From an uncultured Gammaproteobacteria bacterium (GTDB lineage Bacteria > Patescibacteriota > Microgenomatia > UBA1406 > HO2-37-13b), in assembly GCA_964476245.1 (NCBI GenBank), contig CAYYYW010000001.1:26808-90807 (forward strand): a stretch of DNA of 64,000 nucleotides, read 5' to 3'. How positions within the stretch are numbered: the first letter of the stretch is position 1; every line of letters begins with the position of its first letter. The notes beneath the pieces are model-generated. The model saw only the letters and a program-made list of their open reading frames with translations, searched no databases and was not told the origin of the DNA. Position numbers and translations under genes: made by a program. This document shows, piece after piece, positions 15,649-61,503 of the stretch.

Positions 15649-15772
15649 GTCATTCCCGCGCAGGCGGAAATCTATATAATTTGAGCTTTTAAGTTAATAT
15701 AAATCTGGATTTCCCCTGTAGGGGACAATAGCCTGCTGGAGTTTACCCCGCCTTTGGCGGGGCAGGAATGAC
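15649..15772. repeat. GTCATTCC...GGAATGAC palindromic element (MITE-like), intergenic
   Basis: gtcattcccgcgcaggcggaaatc ... ccccgcctttggcggggcaggaatgac. The termini are inverted complements. Same terminal family as 30592..30979, 32087..32196 and 52105..52199. Confidence 0.7.
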
Positions 15773-28554: not shown

Positions 28555-28626
28555 TACCTCCAGCAGGAATTGAACCTACATCAACCGCTTAGGACGCGGC
28601 TACTCTATCCGTTGAGCTATGGAGGC
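28555..28626 (-). tRNA. tRNA-Arg (anticodon CCT)
   Basis: The reverse complement GCCTCCATAGCTCAACGGATAGAGTAGCCGCGTCCTAAGCGGTTGATGTAGGTTCAATTCCTGCTGGAGGTA folds as a cloverleaf, with anticodon stem GCCGC/GCGGT and loop GTCCTAA. Confidence 0.8.
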
Positions 28627-29330: not shown

Positions 29331-29912
29331 ATGGAAAGAACACTAATTATCCTCAAGCCCGACGCGGTTAAACGCGGATTAGTGGGAACAATTTTCGAAT
29401 ATTTTGAAAACGTTGGCTTAAAGCTTTTGACAGCTAAAATGGTCAAACCGGATCAGGAAGTAATAAAAAATCACTATCCGGGTACAAAAGAATGGATAAC
29501 GGAAATGGGACAAAAAACTTTAGCCAGCTTTAAACAATCTGGCGCCGATGTTAAAAAAACTTTGAAAACGGATGATCCTACCGTGCTTGGTCGATTTGTT
29601 TACGACCGTTTAATCAAGTATTGGATGGAGGGGCCTATTATTGTATCTGTTTGGGAAGGACCACACGCTATTGAAATTGCCAGAAAAATAAGAGGTCATA
29701 CTATTCCCTATTTATCTTCCCCTGGAACAATTCATGCTACATATTTGTATGATTCCTCTCTCCTTTCCACCAGCTTAAATCGGGTAGTCAAAACTTTTAT
29801 TCACGCATCAGGAGACGCTGCGGAAGCACAAAGGGAAATTAAATATTGGTTCGGGACGAACGAGTTTAGAAGTTATGAAAGAGAAGTTGATAAATTATAT
29901 CTTATTAAATAG
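29331..29912 (+). CDS. ndk: Nucleoside diphosphate kinase-like (long form), paralog 1
   Basis: 193 aa with ERTLIILKPDAVKRGLVGTIF...TFIHASGD (active-site His). About 45 aa longer than canonical NDK. Confidence 0.65.
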   Translation: MERTLIILKPDAVKRGLVGTIFEYFENVGLKLLTAKMVKPDQEVIKNHYPGTKEWITEMGQKTLASFKQSGADVKKTLKTDDPTVLGRFVYDRLIKYWMEGPIIVSVWEGPHAIEIARKIRGHTIPYLSSPGTIHATYLYDSSLLSTSLNRVVKTFIHASGDAAEAQREIKYWFGTNEFRSYEREVDKLYLIK

Positions 29913-30003: not shown

Positions 30004-30591
30004 ATGAACAAACAAAGAGTATTAATTATAATAAAGCCCGACGCTGTTCAGCGAGGATTGATTGGTGAAATCTTAAAAAGGCTTGAACAAGTTGGCCTAA
30101 AAATTGTTGGCTTAAAATTTGTTTGGGCAACTCAAGATCAAGTAAAAAATCTTTATCCCGAAGCCGAGACTTGGTTTAAAAAGGTAGGAGAACGGACGTT
30201 AACTAATTATCAAAAGAAAGATCTTGATGCCAAAAAGATTTTAGGAACGGACAACCCTGTTGAAATCGGCAAATTAGTAAAACGCTGGTTAATTAATTAT
30301 CTTCAGGAATCCCCTATTCTTTGCGCCGCGCTTGAAGGACATGAAACCGTCGAAATTATCAGAAAAATTTGCGGCAACACCATTCCTCTTTTGGCCCCTC
30401 CTGGCACGATTCGTGGAGATTTTTCCCACGATAATATTGAATTGGCAAATGAAAATAAACGTCCGTTACGAAATGTCATTCATGCCTCGGATACAATCCA
30501 AGACGCAGAAAAAGAAATCAAGGTTTGGTTTACCGAAGATGAGTTATTTGAATATGAGCGGGCGGATGAAGAAATAATGTTTGGACCTTGA
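30004..30591 (+). CDS. ndk: Nucleoside diphosphate kinase-like (long form), paralog 2
   Basis: 195 aa with QRVLIIIKPDAVQRGLIGEIL...RNVIHASD. Confidence 0.7.
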   Translation: MNKQRVLIIIKPDAVQRGLIGEILKRLEQVGLKIVGLKFVWATQDQVKNLYPEAETWFKKVGERTLTNYQKKDLDAKKILGTDNPVEIGKLVKRWLINYLQESPILCAALEGHETVEIIRKICGNTIPLLAPPGTIRGDFSHDNIELANENKRPLRNVIHASDTIQDAEKEIKVWFTEDELFEYERADEEIMFGP

Positions 30592-30979
30592 TGTCATTCC
30601 GAGCGAAGCCTCGATTGAATCGGAGCGAAGTCGAGGAATCCCTTCTCTAATCTTCGCTCAGATCTTTCCATCCTGGATTTATTCTTCTAATAAGCCACTC
30701 TTTTTTTCTCTTCGCCAATTTTTCAGTTGTTTTTCTCGTACGATTGCGTCATTAATGCTCGAATATTGTTCAGAATAAACTAATTTTATGCAACTATATT
30801 TTTTGGAAAATCCATCGATTAAACCCTGTTTATGCTCATAAACTCGTCTTTGTAAATTATTTGTCACACCAAGATACAATGTTCCGCTTTTACTTGCCAT
30901 AAGATAGACATAATAGTTTTTTTTCATGAAAGGATTCCTCCACGCGTCCCGACATTCGTCGGGACTTGGTCGGAATGAC
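30592..30979. mobile_element. GIY-YIG gene enclosed by GTCATTCC...GGAATGAC inverted termini (candidate full-length member of the palindromic element family)
   Basis: Left end tGTCATTCCGAGCGAAGcctcgattgaatcggagcgaagTCGAGGAATCCC (30592..30642). Right end GGATTCCTCcacgcgtcccgacattcgtcgggacttggTCGGAATGAC (30932..30979). The unit exactly fills the gap between the stop codons of convergent genes (30591 and 30981). Confidence 0.55.
30679..30927 (-). CDS. GIY-YIG nuclease family protein (small, UPF0213-like)
   Basis: 82 aa with YYVYLMASKSGTLYLGVTNNLQRRVYEH...REKQLKNW, i.e. the GIY...YxG...R...E core. Confidence 0.8.
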   Translation of the reverse strand: MKKNYYVYLMASKSGTLYLGVTNNLQRRVYEHKQGLIDGFSKKYSCIKLVYSEQYSSINDAIVREKQLKNWRREKKSGLLEE

Positions 30980-30980
30980 G

Positions 30981-31547
30981 TTAGAGTATTTTCTTTATCA
31001 GCTTCTCAATCTTCCCATAAAACCTCCCCACATTAGAATTATTCATCAATGTATAATCCGCCAGTTCAATGCACTTCCCCACCTGCTGCCCAGATTTCTC
31101 TTGCCCAATACCAAAGTCACGTCTGTCTGTTTTATAAAAATCTCGCCAGGTTTTTGGATCCCAAGGCTTACCCCGCTGCAAAACTCTCTTAAAACGGATT
31201 TTTCTTTGGGCTTTCACTGCCACTAAAATAAAATTTTTTATCGTTCGTAAATATTTTACTTCGGCGGGGTTTCGAATTCCTGTAATCACCACCGGTCGTT
31301 TGTCGTTGTTTAAAATCTCAATCGCCCGCTTGGCTAAAACAGCATCGCCGTATTTTTTCCTAAGCTCATCGCCAATATCTTGAAGCGTTTTTCTGGTAAA
31401 TAAATCCACTCCTCTTTTTGTCAACTCCTGATGAAGAACCGTAGATAAAGAAAAGGTGCAAAAGCCGTATTTCTTAATTAAATACTCGGCAAAGACTTCT
31501 TTTCCGGCGGCAATCTGACCAACAACACCGATATAAATTTTTTTCAT
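30981..31547 (-). CDS. P-loop nucleotide kinase (dephospho-CoA kinase / dNMP kinase-like)
   Basis: 188 aa with IGVVGQIAAGKEVFAEYL (Walker A). Substrate not assignable from the sequence. Confidence 0.5.
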   Translation of the reverse strand: MKKIYIGVVGQIAAGKEVFAEYLIKKYGFCTFSLSTVLHQELTKRGVDLFTRKTLQDIGDELRKKYGDAVLAKRAIEILNNDKRPVVITGIRNPAEVKYLRTIKNFILVAVKAQRKIRFKRVLQRGKPWDPKTWRDFYKTDRRDFGIGQEKSGQQVGKCIELADYTLMNNSNVGRFYGKIEKLIKKIL

Positions 31548-31592: not shown

Positions 31593-32474
31593 TTAGAATC
31601 CGTAAATTTTATTGACAAATTCAAAAATCTCCTTTTGCCAGAAAAGCATAATTATTATACCAAGAACAAGAAACGGCCCGAAGGCAATTTTACTTTTTAA
31701 TTTTTTCTTTTTGGCTAACAATAAGATTAACCCCACTATTCCTCCTAAAACAAACCCAAAATACAAAGCCAAAAACCCTGCTTTTGCCCCCAAAAGAAAG
31801 CCCATATTAAAAGCTAATTTGACATCGCCAAAACCCATTCCCCGACCACCCGTAACAAGAAACAAAAATAGAATTGGAGTCAAAACCAACAATCCAGCAA
31901 TGTAACAATGTAACAATGTAACAATGTAACAATGTAACAATTGATTACCAATGCACCCTTGCTGAAAAATTTCCCCCAACTTTAATAATAAAATAAAGAC
32001 GAAGAAGGCAACCTGGATCGTATCCGGAATAATTTGATATTTTAAATCGGAGAAAAAGATGACAATGAGGCACGAAACTAAACCAAGCCTAATTGTCATC
32101 CCGAACAAGCGAAGCGCGTCGAGGGATCCCATTAAGGTTGAACCAAAATTAAAGATAAAGAGATTCCTCGACTCGGTCGCTAACGCTCCCTCGCTCGGAA
32201 TGACGGAGGTGGTAAAAACAAAAATAGCTCCCGTCATCAACTCTACCACCGGATACTGCCAGGAAATTTTTTTGCCACAATAACGACATTTTCCCTTAAG
32301 AAGAAAAAAAGAAACAATCGGAATTAAATCATACCAGGCCAACTGGTGACGACAGTGATTGCAGTAAGAGCGGCCGCCAATCCCTTCATTATTAGGCAGA
32401 CGGTCAATTAAAACATTTAAAAAGGAACCAATCCCAGCGCCGAAGATAAAAATTAAAAAATTAAGAAATATCAT
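31593..32474 (-). CDS. Prepilin peptidase (A24 family)
   Basis: 293 aa with CNHCRHQLAWYDLIPIVSFFLLKGKCRYCGKKISWQYPVVEL (Cys box) and GMGFGDVKL (Asp active site). Contains two repeat insertions. Confidence 0.8.
   Translation of the reverse strand: MIFLNFLIFIFGAGIGSFLNVLIDRLPNNEGIGGRSYCNHCRHQLAWYDLIPIVSFFLLKGKCRYCGKKISWQYPVVELMTGAIFVFTTSVIPSEGALATESRNLFIFNFGSTLMGSLDALRLFGMTIRLGLVSCLIVIFFSDLKYQIIPDTIQVAFFVFILLLKLGEIFQQGCIGNQLLHCYIVTLLHCYIAGLLVLTPILFLFLVTGGRGMGFGDVKLAFNMGFLLGAKAGFLALYFGFVLGGIVGLILLLAKKKKLKSKIAFGPFLVLGIIIMLFWQKEIFEFVNKIYGF
31898..31932. repeat. Tandem 8-bp repeat (CAATGTAA) x about 4.4 inside the prepilin peptidase CDS
   Basis: caatgtaacaatgtaacaatgtaacaatgtaacaa. Translated on the minus strand as LLHCYIVTLLHCYIA. 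The same 8-mer recurs at 56128..56149. Confidence 0.8.
32087..32196. repeat. GTCATCCC...GGAATGAC palindromic element in frame in the prepilin peptidase
   Basis: gtcatcccgaacaagcgaagcgcgtcgagggatccc ... gagattcctcgactcggtcgctaacgctccctcgctcggaatgac. Translated as SVIPSEGALATESRNLFIFNFGSTLMGSLDALRLFGMT. Confidence 0.75.
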
Positions 32475-50817: not shown

Positions 50818-53637
50818 TCAATTTTCAATAATAAAATTTATAATCTTTCCTTCCACATAAACTACCCGATATTTTTTCCCTTCTAAGTATTTCTTTACTT
50901 TCTCCTCTTTTAATGACCTATTGATGATGGCCGTTTCGGATAGGTTGGTTATCAACATTTTGATAGTGGCACGGAGCCTACCGTTAACTTGAATAGGAAT
51001 GACAATTTCCTCTTCTGTTATTTTTCCTTCCACCTCAGGCCAACGAGAAAGATGAATTGAAGTTTTTTCACCAAAAACTTCTCGCCAGATTTGTTCTGTA
51101 ACAAAAGGAGCGAAGGGAGCGAGGATTTGCAAGAATTTCTTGGCGTTATTTTGAGATAAACGTCTCGTCATTTTAACCGCCGCGGTTCCAGATGGACTAT
51201 TTTCTAAAACCGCCGCGGTTCTTCCTTGGCAGCTTTCTTCCCAAGCGTTAAGAAATTCCATCATAGCCGCAATTGCCGTGTTAAATTTTACGTTCGTAAT
51301 ATCGGAAGAAGCCTTTAAAATCGTCTTTTGAAGCTTGACAACAAGTTTTTTATCCTCTTCATTTTCGTTGTTAGTTAACTTAGCAGGATTATGGTAAATT
51401 TGCCAAATTCGGGTTAAAAATCTGTATCCGCCCTGAAGCGCTTTAATTGACCAAGCGATTTCAGAAGGAAATGGTGCCATAAACATCTCATAGATCCGTA
51501 ATGTATCAGCCCCGTATTCATTCACCACATCATCAGGATTAATTACATTTCCCAATGACTTACTCATTTTTCGATGATCCTCGGCTAAAACCATACCAAC
51601 GTTACGAAGACATAAAAACGGTTCGGAAAAATCTAATAATCCAAGGTCTTGCAGAGCCTTAACCCAAAAACGAGAATATAAAAGATGTAAAACCGCATGC
51701 TCTGCGCCACCAAGATACCAATCAACAGGAAGCCATTGTTTGCCGGAATTTTCAATTTTCATCCGCCAGTTGGCGGACCAATTTTCAAAAGAAGGGAGCG
51801 AAGATGCCTGTTTCGAGTCAATCGCCTGGGTCCCTTTAGGGTGAGGCGGACGAGAAACACGGCCTCGAGCCTCCTGATTCCAAAAAACAAATGCTAAAAA
51901 ATACCAGCACGACCCTGCCCAATTAGGCATGGTATCGGTTTCACGACGCGCTGAACCACCACAATGAGGACATTTTGTTTTAACAAAAGATTCAATTTTA
52001 GCTAGTGGAGACTCTCCCGTTTCCGTCGGTTGATAACTTTTCACGTACGGAAGTTTTACAGGAAGTTCGTTTTCAGAAATGGGAAACCAACCATATAATT
52101 CCCTGTCATTCTGAGCCCTGCCGTGGCGGGGCGAAGAATCTATCGAAGCGTTATTACACTCACTTCGTTCGCTAGATCCTTCACTTCGTTCAGGATGACT
52201 TTTTGGGGAATTCCAATAATTGATGCGTTTTTTTGCGCACTTTTCGCAAAAAATCATCGGAATTGGTTCGCCCCAATACCTTTGTCTTGAAAAAATCCAA
52301 TCGCGAAGATGATAGCTCACTGTCTTTTTTCCCCAACCTTTTTTCTCAATGTAATCCATGATCTTTTTTGTAGCTTCATGAATATCTAAACCATTCAAAA
52401 ATCCTGAATTAATCATTTTCCCTTCTTCTTCCTGAACTTGCTCTTTTTTGATAATTGGTGAGGTATCTCCATCTCTTCCGACAACAACGCGAACAATTTC
52501 CAAACCATACTCTTTAGCAAACTCAAAATCGCGGATATCGTGCCCGGGAACACCAACCACCGCACCCGTTCCAACTTGAGGTAAAACAAAATCCGAAATC
52601 CAAATGGGCATCGGTCTTCCGTTTAAATTATTAATCGCATAAAATCCCGTAAACACACCGGTTTTTTTTCGACCTTCAGCGATGCGTTCCAATTCTGACT
52701 TTGAAATCGCTTTTTGAACATATTTTTTAATCTTTTTTAATAGATTCTTCGACTCCCCCGACTCAACGTCGGGGTCGCTCAGAATGACAGGAGGGGGGGT
52801 AATTTTTCCATCTAATATTTTTTTTACAAATTCATGCTCCGGAGCAATAACAATAAAAGTCGCGCCAAAGTTTGTGTCGGGGCGAGTGGTAAAACACTCT
52901 ATTTGATATTTAATATTTAATATTTGATATTTTATGTTTATGCCTTCTTTTCTCCCAATCCAATTCCTTTGCATCTCTAAAATCCCCTTTGGCCAATCTA
53001 ATTCTTTTAAATCGGAAAGTAACCGATCAGCATAGGCAGTGATGCGAAATATCCATTGTGGTAATTCTTTTTTGGTTATTTTATTACCACAACGTTCATG
53101 AGTTCCATCCGACAAAACTTCCTCCTCGGCCAAGCCGGTTTTACACTTAGGACAAAAATTAATCGCTGTATTTTTCTTATACAAAAGCCCCATTTTAAAA
53201 AACTGAATAAAAAGCCATTGAGTCCATTTATAATATTGCGGGTCGGTGGTGGAAAACTCTCTTCCCCAATCATAAGAAAAACCCAACATCTTCATTTGCC
53301 GTTTAAAATTGGCGATATTTTGAGGCACTATGTCCATCGGGTTTTTTTTGGCCACAATAGCAGCGTTTTCTGCTGGTAAACCGAAGGCATCCCAACCCAT
53401 GGGATATAAAACCGCATTACCCTTCATCCTTAAATATCGAGCTAAAACATCCGTTCCAGTATAAATACGGACGTGACCCACGTGAAGACCAGTTCCTGAC
53501 GGATAAGGAAACATAGAGAGACAGTAAGTTTTCAGTTTTCGGTTATCAGCTGTCAGTTTGGGAGTCTGATAAACTTTTTCTTTTTCCCATTCTTCTACCC
53601 ATTTTGATTCAAATTGAGAAGGTAAATATTTGATCAT
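50818..53637 (-). CDS. leuS: Leucyl-tRNA synthetase
   Basis: 939 aa with FPYPSGTGLHVGHVRIYT (HIGH region) and KMSKSLGN (KMSKS). Carries at least four in-frame repeat insertions. Confidence 0.95.
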   Translation of the reverse strand: MIKYLPSQFESKWVEEWEKEKVYQTPKLTADNRKLKTYCLSMFPYPSGTGLHVGHVRIYTGTDVLARYLRMKGNAVLYPMGWDAFGLPAENAAIVAKKNPMDIVPQNIANFKRQMKMLGFSYDWGREFSTTDPQYYKWTQWLFIQFFKMGLLYKKNTAINFCPKCKTGLAEEEVLSDGTHERCGNKITKKELPQWIFRITAYADRLLSDLKELDWPKGILEMQRNWIGRKEGINIKYQILNIKYQIECFTTRPDTNFGATFIVIAPEHEFVKKILDGKITPPPVILSDPDVESGESKNLLKKIKKYVQKAISKSELERIAEGRKKTGVFTGFYAINNLNGRPMPIWISDFVLPQVGTGAVVGVPGHDIRDFEFAKEYGLEIVRVVVGRDGDTSPIIKKEQVQEEEGKMINSGFLNGLDIHEATKKIMDYIEKKGWGKKTVSYHLRDWIFSRQRYWGEPIPMIFCEKCAKKRINYWNSPKSHPERSEGSSERSECNNASIDSSPRHGRAQNDRELYGWFPISENELPVKLPYVKSYQPTETGESPLAKIESFVKTKCPHCGGSARRETDTMPNWAGSCWYFLAFVFWNQEARGRVSRPPHPKGTQAIDSKQASSLPSFENWSANWRMKIENSGKQWLPVDWYLGGAEHAVLHLLYSRFWVKALQDLGLLDFSEPFLCLRNVGMVLAEDHRKMSKSLGNVINPDDVVNEYGADTLRIYEMFMAPFPSEIAWSIKALQGGYRFLTRIWQIYHNPAKLTNNENEEDKKLVVKLQKTILKASSDITNVKFNTAIAAMMEFLNAWEESCQGRTAAVLENSPSGTAAVKMTRRLSQNNAKKFLQILAPFAPFVTEQIWREVFGEKTSIHLSRWPEVEGKITEEEIVIPIQVNGRLRATIKMLITNLSETAIINRSLKEEKVKKYLEGKKYRVVYVEGKIINFIIEN
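51803..51868. repeat. GC-rich palindromic element in frame in leuS (same family as 44417..44489)
   Basis: gatgcctgtttcgagtcaatcgcctgggtccctttagggtgaggcggacgagaaacacggcctcgag. Translated as ARGRVSRPPHPKGTQAIDSKQASS. Confidence 0.7.
52105..52199. repeat. GTCATTCT...AGGATGAC palindromic element in frame in leuS
   Basis: gtcattctgagccctgccgtggcggggcgaagaatc ... gatccttcacttcgttcaggatgac. Translated as SHPERSEGSSERSECNNASIDSSPRHGRAQNDR. Confidence 0.75.
52742..52788. repeat. Half element (...CGCTCAGAATGAC) in frame in leuS
   Basis: agattcttcgactcccccgactcaacgtcggggtcgctcagaatgac. Translated as ILSDPDVESGESKN. Confidence 0.6.
52901..52935. repeat. 8-bp-periodic AT-rich tandem repeat in leuS
   Basis: atttgatatttaatatttaatatttgatattttat. 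Translated as NIKYQILNIKYQI. Confidence 0.65.
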
Positions 53638-60422: not shown

Positions 60423-61503
60423 TTATTTTTCATCTAGATAAACATGAAGACCGACCGCTAGTCTTTGCTGACATTGTGAACATCTATTAATTTCGTCTAA
60501 ATTATATAATGTTACCTTATCTCTAGTGTGTTTTGAATGATATAGTGCCCTGTCTGCGTTGTTAATCAAGATATCTAAAGTTGTTAATGCGGGACTGATT
60601 TCAGCCACGCCGAGACTTAAAGTAAGATGTGTTTGTTGACCGTCAACCGTAATGCTTACCCCGAAATTCTCCTCAGTTTCCTTAATTAAATTTCTTATCC
60701 TCTCGGCTATTTGTTCTGCCGTCTTTCTATCAACCCGCGCTAAAATAATAAATTCATCCCCCCCCGTATCTAGCAAACAAATCATCTTCCTTCATTGTTG
60801 AACTAATTATTGCCGTGATTCTTTTTAAAATTTTATCTCCTACAGGATGACCCCATTTATCGTTCGCTGATTTGAAATGGTCAATGTCAAACATTATTAA
60901 AGACAGAGGTAAACCATTCGTTTGCGCTTCTTCAAAAATTTCTTGGCCTTTTGCTTGAAAATACCTTCGATTATACAAATTTGTGAGAGAATCACGATTC
61001 GCCTCATATTCCAACCTTTTTTTCTCTTTCTCCTGCAGAGTCACGTCTTCTAGAAAACCAAAGATAAGTTTTATCCCGCTCTTTGGGTTTCCCCTTTTAT
61101 TGTATACAACATATGCGGCTGTATCGCTTGCCCAAAAAGTAGTTCCGTCGGTTTTTTTCAATTGCACTACAAAAGGTAACAGATTGCCGCTTTCAGAAAC
61201 CCGCTGTAACCACCCAACACGATCATTAGAATGTAGATATAATTCATCTCTCCTGTAAAAATCTTCAAGCTCCCTAAGTGACTTGCAACCAAACATTTCC
61301 GTAAAAACACTATTTGCGAAAATTACTTCATGGTTCTGAAGATCTGTACAATAAACTCCTATGGGAAAATTATCTAAAATCGGAGCAAACAATCCCATAA
61401 AAATATCAGGCCGCCTCCTGGCAATTGCCATCATGCCCTGCGAAATGAAAGACAATGTTCTGTCTTTAAGCCGATGTCTTTCAAGTGTATTTACTTCCTT
61501 CAT
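60423..61503 (-). pseudogene. PAS-GGDEF diguanylate cyclase disrupted by a +1 frameshift in a G8 (C8 on the + strand) tract inside the GGDEF motif
   Basis: ORF 60754..61503 ends ...DLFARYGGG*, and ORF 60423..60785 continues ...GGDEFIILARV in another frame. The C-run at 60758..60765 is 8 nt; 7 nt would read Y-G-G-D-E-F continuously. Confidence 0.7.

Follow-up and report, generated by a model that had tools for sequence, protein, structure and literature searches.

At positions 30592-30979 of the 64,000-nt stretch of DNA analysed here (the window), a short unit of repeats and coding sequence is wedged between two convergent genes, and its ends recur at other places in the window. The locus raises the question of what kind of element this is, and whether the small nuclease that it encodes moves the unit and its shorter counterparts. 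An earlier note, made from the sequence alone, had viewed the unit as the autonomous parent of a family of short elements, with the nuclease as the candidate mobilising enzyme. The evidence set out below indicates that the cassette is very probably an Ssn-family single-domain GIY-YIG nuclease gene bracketed by two cognate SRM/NTS-type hairpin repeats, with the GTCAT ends directed outward. Judged by its sequence, the 388-bp unit is a copy of the Ssn/SRM gene-plus-repeat system already published in 2025 and not a new kind of element. The host appears to be an AT-rich bacterium of the candidate phyla radiation.

The Ssn family consists of single-domain GIY-YIG proteins whose binding to a hairpin repeat requires single-stranded DNA (ssDNA) and which cut a few nucleotides upstream of the repeat (Chenal et al. 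2025, Nat Commun, PMC11893778). In Neisseria the repeat, NTS, is CGTCATTCCCGCGMAVGCGGGAATCYRG, its variants are named SRMs, and as a rule such repeats flank the ssn genes. The published NTS/SRM core comprises (T/C)GTCAT, a palindrome and C; the three nucleotides before the palindrome matter most for cutting and the C right after it matters most for binding (PMC11893778). Sequence-specific hydrolytic cutting of ssDNA beside the hairpin is the sole activity demonstrated for the family, and no transposition has been demonstrated. The authors delimit the family by the top CDD hit cd10448 (GIY-YIG_unchar_3); a mobile-element origin has already been raised, and they remark on the IS-like layout (PMC11893778).

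Anatomy of the cassette

The sequence reads as the earlier note had it: a 388-bp unit with inverted termini encloses an 82-aa GIY-YIG ORF and fills the gap between the stop codons of the convergent ORFs. Precisely, the two stop codons are separated by one T, a 387-nt block and one G. In the plus-strand reading, the left end of the block is GTCATTCCGAGCGAAGCC...GTCGAGGAATC and the right end is GATTCCTCCACGCG...TCGGAATGAC (units U3 and U4 in Table 1). Read on their own strands, both units run from GTCATTCC through ~35 variable nucleotides to GGAATC; they are 47-48 nt long and face outward. The outermost 10 nt of the cassette ends are perfectly complementary, and a second 16-nt arm in the GGAATCC region is 88% complementary. 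Both U3 and U4 have the form GTC-ATTCC...GGAAT-C, that is, the functionally critical core of GTC, palindrome and C, which gives each unit a direction.

U4 terminates 4 nt before the ATG of the nuclease gene, and its 3' arm holds a GGAGG 9-13 nt before that ATG. As ssDNA, U4 folds into an ATTCC/GGAAT closing stem and an inner 8-bp hairpin (-12.3 kcal/mol, z -2.58); the ssDNA fold of U3 is not better than its shuffles (z +0.56). The nuclease ORF has a GC content of 30%, compared with 48-64% in the units and 36.9% in the window. A promoter scan from the kinase-like gene to the nuclease gene found no promoter-like site directly upstream of the latter, and a terminator scan found no terminator-like site in the cassette region. 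Thus, the nuclease gene may be read through from the kinase-like gene.

Table 1 Features of the cassette and repeat units of the window.
Feature	Position	Strand	Remarks
U1/U2 inverted doublet, intergenic between divergent ORFs	15649..15772	U1 15649-15672 +, U2 15708-15772 -	doublet ssDNA fold z -3.44
NDK-like ORF	30004-30591	plus	stop codon 30589-30591
U3, SRM-type unit downstream of the nuclease gene	30593..30640	+	inverted relative to the gene; GTCATTCC GAGCGAAGCCTCGATTGAATCGGAGCGAAGTCGA GGAATC
Frameshift region	30647..30706	-	A_AAA_AAG at 30706-30700, zero-frame phasing; -1-frame stop ends at 30647
ssn-type GIY-YIG nuclease ORF	30679..30927	-	zero frame, 82 aa; Pfam PF01541 E 5.6e-15
U4, SRM-type hairpin unit upstream of the nuclease gene	30933..30979	-	gene's own strand; GTCATTCC GACCAA GTCCCGAC GAAT GTCGGGAC GCGTGGA GGAATC
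P-loop kinase-like ORF	30981-31547	minus	stop codon 30981-30983
U5/U6 inverted doublet in prepilin peptidase ORF	32095..32204	U5 +, U6 -	in-frame reading VIPSEGALATESRNLFIFNFGSTLMGSLDALRLFGMT
U7/U8 inverted doublet in leucyl-tRNA synthetase (LeuRS) ORF	52105..52199	U7 +, U8 -	in frame
U9 solo unit in LeuRS editing domain	52743..52788	-	in frame (VILSDPDVESGESKN); ssDNA fold z -2.40

Repeat units across the window

The window contains a single GIY-YIG gene and nine clear units, which form four outward-facing pairs, the cassette included, and one solo unit; outside the cassette the unit thus occurs seven more times, in three inverted doublets and the solo. The same unit type is present at all sites, in agreement with the earlier assignment of the cassette termini and the short elements to one repeat family. 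The short elements listed in that note all exist, with one correction: the doublet placed at 32087..32196 is off by 8 nt and lies at 32095-32204. Two features had escaped it, the solo unit at 52743-52788 and the location of three of the four non-cassette sites inside ORFs.

The abundance of the units exceeds expectation. Five matches to GTCATTCCGAG with at most one mismatch are found in the window, where 0.70 are expected and none of 100 shuffles reaches five. A relaxed unit pattern yields 10 matches versus 1.3 +/- 1.1 (maximum 5), nine of which are the clear units; the tenth, at 60851, looks like chance. All nine units carry the GTCAT core and the exact complement of the 5-nt stem followed by C. 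The stem is ATTCC in five units, ATTCT in two, ATCCC in one and ATCCT in one, and because both stem sides vary together the pairing appears preserved. The base before GTC is never G (T in six, C in two and A in one). The interiors are variable, giving units of 24-65 nt; several contain a second GC-rich hairpin, and GAGCGAAG...GTCGA is often present. U1 differs from the Neisseria NTS core by a single mismatch. As ssDNA, four of the nine units have folds clearly better than their shuffles (U4, U2, U9 and U7, z -2.6 to -1.8), and the folds of U3, U5, U6 and U8 are not better than shuffles. Whole doublets folded as ssDNA give z values of -3.44, -3.18 and -1.56.

The published SRM pattern, HGTCWYN(0-2)YYVSBRHN(0-5)WNVSBRGN(0-2)RNCYNB, has no match in the whole window, U1 failing by one base, and by this pattern the nuclease gene is not flanked by an SRM on both sides within 500 nt. 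The pattern misses the window units because it limits the loop to 5 nt and needs a GC-rich stem, whereas the units have long interiors. A structural definition of the unit was used instead, in which GTC[AT] is followed by a stem of 5 nt, a loop of 3-60 nt (up to 70 nt in some scans) and the complement of the stem.

The location of the unit between convergent genes, together with the Shine-Dalgarno-like character of the GGAGG in the 3' arm of the upstream hairpin, is what might be seen if the hairpins were terminators or attenuators acting at the RNA level on these genes, with the nuclease gene a passenger. This explanation is very unlikely, given the outcome of the terminator scan and the presence of the same units inside essential ORFs that need transcription through them. 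An Rfam search of the window at the gathering threshold returned four tRNAs only and nothing at the repeats, and SsnA binds neither RNA nor double-stranded DNA (PMC11893778).

Ssn-family assignment of the nuclease

The window protein was compared with a 94-aa protein of N. gonorrhoeae, which was taken as the SsnA orthologue on the basis of its length and of residues Y6, Y17 and E64, those mutated in Nm SsnA. The two proteins share 47% identity over 77 aa (BLASTP E 4e-26, 78.6 bits), and tblastn against 7.3 Gb gives the Neisseria match an E value of 4e-17. The catalytic residues are kept, Y8, Y18 and E65 of the window protein aligning with Y6, Y17 and E64. PF01541, spanning residues 4-75, is the sole Pfam domain. 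Ssn proteins are defined as single-domain, shorter than 150 aa and homologous to Neisseria SsnA with E < 1e-10; the window protein measures 82 aa in the zero frame and 93 aa after a -1 shift, and its E value, obtained against the gonococcal orthologue, is below that threshold. The orthologue was taken from NZ_CP119140.1 1880763-1884050 (L128), part of a 2.17-Mb N. gonorrhoeae chromosome filed as a plasmid in PLSDB. There the gene lies within an array of 17 NTS units in 3.3 kb, and the orientation of the units adjoining it is opposite to that at most other loci.

Searches of large databases yield hundreds of proteins of ~92-99 aa whose annotation goes no further than "GIY-YIG nuclease family protein". 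Many originate from Patescibacteria MAGs, others from Bacteroidota, Ignavibacteria and Proteobacteria, and no Neisseria protein is among the best 120 matches of a protein search with the betaproteobacterial homologue L013. No family for the window protein was found in NCBIfam or PADLOC. The nearest solved structures, and the only ones found among relatives, are those of the UPF0213 proteins PDB 1ZG2 and 1YWL (E 1.1e-6 and 3.9e-5). Proteins of this UPF0213/YhbQ type are likewise small stand-alone GIY-YIG domains, but the match is much weaker than that to SsnA (31.8 bits by phmmer versus 78.6 bits by BLASTP) and the aligned parts contain no NPxWxDL tail. GIY-YIG homing endonucleases of the I-TevI type, in which the nuclease domain is fused to a DNA-binding domain and which reside in introns or stand free in phages and cut the empty allele, do not fit either: the window protein has no second domain, there is no intron RNA match, and the repeats are on the element itself. 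The assignment places an Ssn nuclease with its repeats in an AT-rich lineage resembling the candidate phyla radiation.

The gene copy is frameshifted

The C-terminal tails of the homologues read ...WRREKKExLIxxxNPxWKDLS.. and are at least 90% conserved. The window ORF halts at ...WRREKKSGLLEE, and its zero-frame product is devoid of the LIxxxNPxWxDL tail, the shift occurring 12 codons before the normal end of the family. The conserved C-terminus, EWLIRRINPGWKDLSED followed by the stop, is encoded in the -1 frame from an A7 run (GAA AAA AAG) onward. One extra A restores a 93-aa protein with a tail nearly identical to that of P0050, and this product aligns up to residue 92 of the SsnA orthologue. 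The frameshifted sequence is identical in three assemblies. Shorter homologues of 82-87 aa were considered as recurrent truncations and rejected; their N-terminal starts are miscalled and their C-termini are full.

The sequence at the shift, A_AAA_AAG, is a classic -1 slippery heptamer, as in dnaX and IS elements; no stimulatory RNA structure was found downstream of it (z +0.75). Plain mutation is a simpler reading than programmed -1 frameshifting, so that the product of this copy, barring ribosomal slippage at A_AAA_AAG, is probably a truncated, weakened or dead enzyme.

The whole cassette could accordingly be viewed as a decaying relic, with a pseudogene at its centre and repeats that have lost any protein partner. 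We hold this as distinctly possible but on balance doubtful. The one-base deletion in an A8 run that removes the conserved tail, its presence in all three assemblies, the heterogeneity of the stems in the window (ATTCC, ATCCC, ATTCT and ATCCT), and the results of the promoter scan and of the search for a frameshift-stimulating structure are in line with it. However, the ORF is intact except for the single frameshift with all catalytic residues kept, the sequence at the shift matches A_AAA_AAG exactly when phased in the zero frame, and GTC, stem and trailing C are kept in every unit. Moreover, a second, intact copy may exist beyond the 64-kb window.

The layout recurs at homologous loci

Homologous genes (53-67% identity) at 80 loci of species-representative genomes from many phyla were examined with the structural unit definition (loop 3-60 nt). 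A same-strand unit lies within 150 nt upstream of the gene at 57 loci and an inverted unit lies downstream at 61; the full repeat>gene<repeat layout, with both flanks occupied, is seen at 49 of the 80 loci, from many phyla. Shuffled sequences lead to an expectation of ~0.07 units per strand per 150 nt, and the flanks beyond 400 nt come close to this value. GIY-YIG ORFs of this family are therefore flanked by such termini systematically; the earlier note had proposed this test, and its reading withstands it.

The 98 units of these 49 loci preserve the details of the core, with C as the base after the stem in 95 and T or C before GTC in 93. The median gap is 21 nt from the unit to the start codon and 5 nt from the stop codon to the unit. 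The two flanks carry the same stem at 20 of the 49 loci, versus 10.7 +/- 2.3 for random pairing. The exact NTS core flanks the homologues L013, L029, L048 and L071/72, and the Saccharibacteria locus L046 has unit forms nearly parallel to those of the window. Only 13 of the 80 loci (16%) are caught by the published degenerate SRM pattern, against 61% with the full layout by the structural definition; the published search pattern thus misses long-interior variants. The presence of the exact NTS core around homologues, while the pattern fails on the window, indicates that the window units are long-interior variants of SRMs rather than a different repeat.

The same data bear on whether two independent short repeats merely happen to flank an unrelated small ORF in an insertion-tolerant spacer, an idea that the earlier note had named as one that would undo its reading. 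Such a coincidence draws some plausibility from the spacer, which is a hot spot with unrelated inserts in several relatives (see below), but it is contradicted by the 49 of 80 loci with the full layout across many phyla and by the excess of shared stems, which together make it extremely improbable.

A tandem cluster rather than a single cassette occurs in L049, an uncultured Ignavibacteriaceae contig, where positions 511-2718 contain three homologous nuclease genes in ~2.2 kb.

Gain and loss at the kinase/NDK2 spacer

In 44 metagenomic relatives the genes follow one another in the same order, prepilin peptidase > kinase > < NDK2 < NDK1 < thymidylate kinase. The two nearest syntenic relatives (81% kinase identity) have a spacer of 80 AT-rich nucleotides between kinase and NDK2 with neither a unit nor a GIY-YIG gene, so that the empty site for which the earlier note had suggested looking does exist in the closest relatives. 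Many other relatives have spacers of -59 to +21 nt, i.e., almost none or overlapping stop codons. Bare doublets are found in two relatives, one of the ATTGC/GCAAT type in a 107-nt spacer (L109) and one at the kinase/NDK2 junction of L094. Several others contain unrelated inserts of 0.3-2.5 kb, which shows the spacer to be permissive. From this variability it follows that the 388-bp unit was either gained as a discrete block or lost elsewhere.

The relatives, at 81% protein identity, are too distant for reading the junction at nucleotide level, and no target-site duplication can be seen. A nucleotide-level search for empty sites of the homologous cassettes on Rhizobium plasmids found no related record with both flanks but lacking the cassette. 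In two Bradyrhizobium cassettes (L066 and L080) the similarity sets in at the outer end of the upstream repeat, and their placement relative to a neighbouring gene differs. Two contigs of one Candidatus Desulfacyla euxinica MAG (L071 1865-2384 and L072 1865-2384) share a 517-nt block, 98.6% identical, which lies in unrelated flanks and contains, besides the nuclease gene, an inner pair of units with the exact NTS sequence. Outside these SRMs, a 23-nt terminal inverted repeat (AGCATTACCAGTTTGTTAAAG) forms the outer boundary of the block. This separate repeat suggests that the L071/L072 cassettes were carried by another element; the arrangement resembles a cassette lodged inside a second small element with inverted repeats of its own.

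Units inside genes

Three of the five repeat sites of the window lie inside ORFs, all in frame. The U5/U6 doublet corresponds to 37 aa in a linker of the prepilin peptidase ORF (31593-32474, minus). In the LeuRS ORF (50818-53637, minus), the U7/U8 doublet encodes most of a 47-aa insert, residues 469-515, which falls where T. thermophilus LeuRS (1H3N) has no residues; both LeuRS sites, U7/U8 and U9, map to missing residues or a gap in the T. thermophilus enzyme. Relatives carry different doublets in the peptidase linker (L096/97/99, L101/120, L115/116, L117/118 and L119), and many homologues have none. Doublets also occur inside the kinase (L089, L092, L117 and L119) and inside the thymidylate kinase (L096/99). 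Six units of L096/99 share the extended stem ATTCTGG/CCAGAAT. The pattern fits repeated lineage-specific spread in which only in-frame, stop-free insertions survive. In annotation terms, unusual stretches of peptide in these proteins, for instance VIPSEA...LGMT, are translated repeats.

Rickettsia palindromic elements, reportedly described by Ogata et al. in 2000, are said to be palindromic repeats residing in frame in protein genes at permissive surface or linker positions, and by that description they resemble the in-frame palindromic insertions seen here. Our literature search found no paper linking these elements to GIY-YIG proteins, nor one linking in-frame elements such as those of the window to GIY-YIG proteins or to the candidate phyla radiation. 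Rickettsia is among the genomes with more than 300 SRMs (PMC11893778).

A third LeuRS insert, at 51745-51885 (residues 585-631), measures ~47 aa where the T. thermophilus enzyme has 13 residues. The DNA is GC-rich at this place but shows no recognisable GTCAT unit; the insert could be the decayed remains of an element or have an unrelated origin.

Mobility of the units and working of the cassette

The resemblance to the published Ssn/NTS-SRM system extends from the protein (a single GIY-YIG domain of ~94 aa with the Y/Y/E residues conserved, 47% identical to the gonococcal orthologue) to the repeats, which have the core (T/C)GTCAT, palindrome and C, flank the gene and are dispersed in further copies. 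There are also differences. The window units have long, variable interiors and reach 24-65 nt. The gene lies inside one outward-facing pair, whereas that of N. gonorrhoeae lies between doublets in a dense array with the opposite orientation. Sites inside ORFs make up three of five in the window versus 2% of the NTS in N. meningitidis (PMC11893778). Finally, the gene copy is frameshifted and the host apparently belongs to the candidate phyla radiation. Counting against the assignment are the lack of matches to the published SRM pattern, the number of units with a fold clearly better than shuffles, four of nine with U3 not among them, and the missing conserved tail of the zero-frame product.

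Cutting chemistry and cut position we infer from homology with the characterised enzymes of Neisseria and Wolbachia. On this basis, binding would require a repeat that is single-stranded and folded; the protein would recognise GTC, the stem that follows and the C behind the stem, and would hydrolyse the strand a few nucleotides to the 5' side of GTC. Oligonucleotide lengths in PMC11893778 would put the cut ~3-4 nt before the NTS. In the cassette, one strand would then be cut just beyond one end and the opposite strand just beyond the other, at or beside the stop codons of the two neighbouring genes. In this reading the remaining units of the window are dispersed targets of the same kind, most of them arranged as inverted doublets in the way of REPINs. 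One possible role is the restriction of incoming ssDNA that bears units, as was shown for Neisseria transformation (PMC11893778); another is to drive the spread of units in the manner of REPIN/RAYT; and a third possibility is that the cutting has lost any function.

The proposal of the earlier note, in which the short doublets form a MITE-like family with the cassette as its autonomous parent and the nuclease moves both itself and the doublets, is unproven, and we place it on the unlikely side. It would account for the outward-facing termini common to cassette and doublets, for the absence of the cassette from the spacer in relatives, for doublets at differing lineage-specific positions, in frame within the prepilin peptidase, kinase, thymidylate kinase and LeuRS genes, and for the single extended stem of the six L096/L099 units, as expected after recent amplification. 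The Bradyrhizobium cassettes that match from the outer repeat end in different placements and the IS-like layout remarked on in PMC11893778 point the same way. However, GIY-YIG enzymes hydrolyse DNA with no covalent intermediate, and no strand-joining step is known. The descent of the short elements from a gene-bearing progenitor is not upheld, as the window copies have only the motif core in common, with differing interiors and not near-identical sequence, and no gene remnant was seen by eye in the doublet spacers. The near-identical deletion derivatives and target-site duplications of classical IS/MITE families were not observed on inspection by eye, the latter in the end flanks. The nuclease gene copy is frameshifted, and the sole near-identical cassette pair found, L071/L072, is bounded by the different 23-nt repeat, so another system may have moved it.

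A parallel for the doublets is offered by the REPIN/RAYT system, which likewise has short GC-rich hairpin repeats as inverted doublets (compare the four outward-facing pairs of the window), a single-copy gene flanked by the same repeats, and recognition of folded ssDNA. The enzyme here is, in contrast, a hydrolytic GIY-YIG nuclease and not an HUH/Y1 (IS200/IS605-like) transposase. Inverted SRM doublets of the candidate phyla radiation could be REPIN-like mobile units that repeatedly colonise genomes, with in-frame sites in essential genes, LeuRS and prepilin peptidase among them, and that are spread by a small hydrolytic GIY-YIG ssDNA nuclease together with host repair or replication. We regard this as rather improbable; if true, it would constitute a mobility route without any known transposase class. 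The comparative sequence data favour some mobility of the units and do not show the nuclease to be its driver. The empty sites, the independent doublets at one spacer and the lineage-specific in-frame insertions in essential genes amount to comparative evidence of gain and loss, which bears on the question of the 2025 paper regarding repeat mobility and the role of the nuclease outside Neisseria.

Other features of the neighbouring genes

An octanucleotide tandem repeat, (TTACATTG)x5, occupies 31898-31937 in the prepilin peptidase ORF (minus). In another assembly of the organism (L003) the octamer is present four times, with the result that the frame changes and the ORF breaks into 219 + 81 aa; the copy difference could reflect slipped-strand phase variation or assembly noise. 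The ORFs at 29331-29912 and 30004-30591 encode tandem NDK-like paralogues of ~195 aa, and conservation of the pair extends to the syntenic relatives. The match of each paralogue to the 135-position NDK profile is broken into two stretches, so that each may carry an internal insert. A tRNA at 28555-28626 (minus) overlaps the mechanical start (28552) of the thymidylate kinase ORF; since homologues align only from about residue 40-47, the true start of the thymidylate kinase is probably further downstream.
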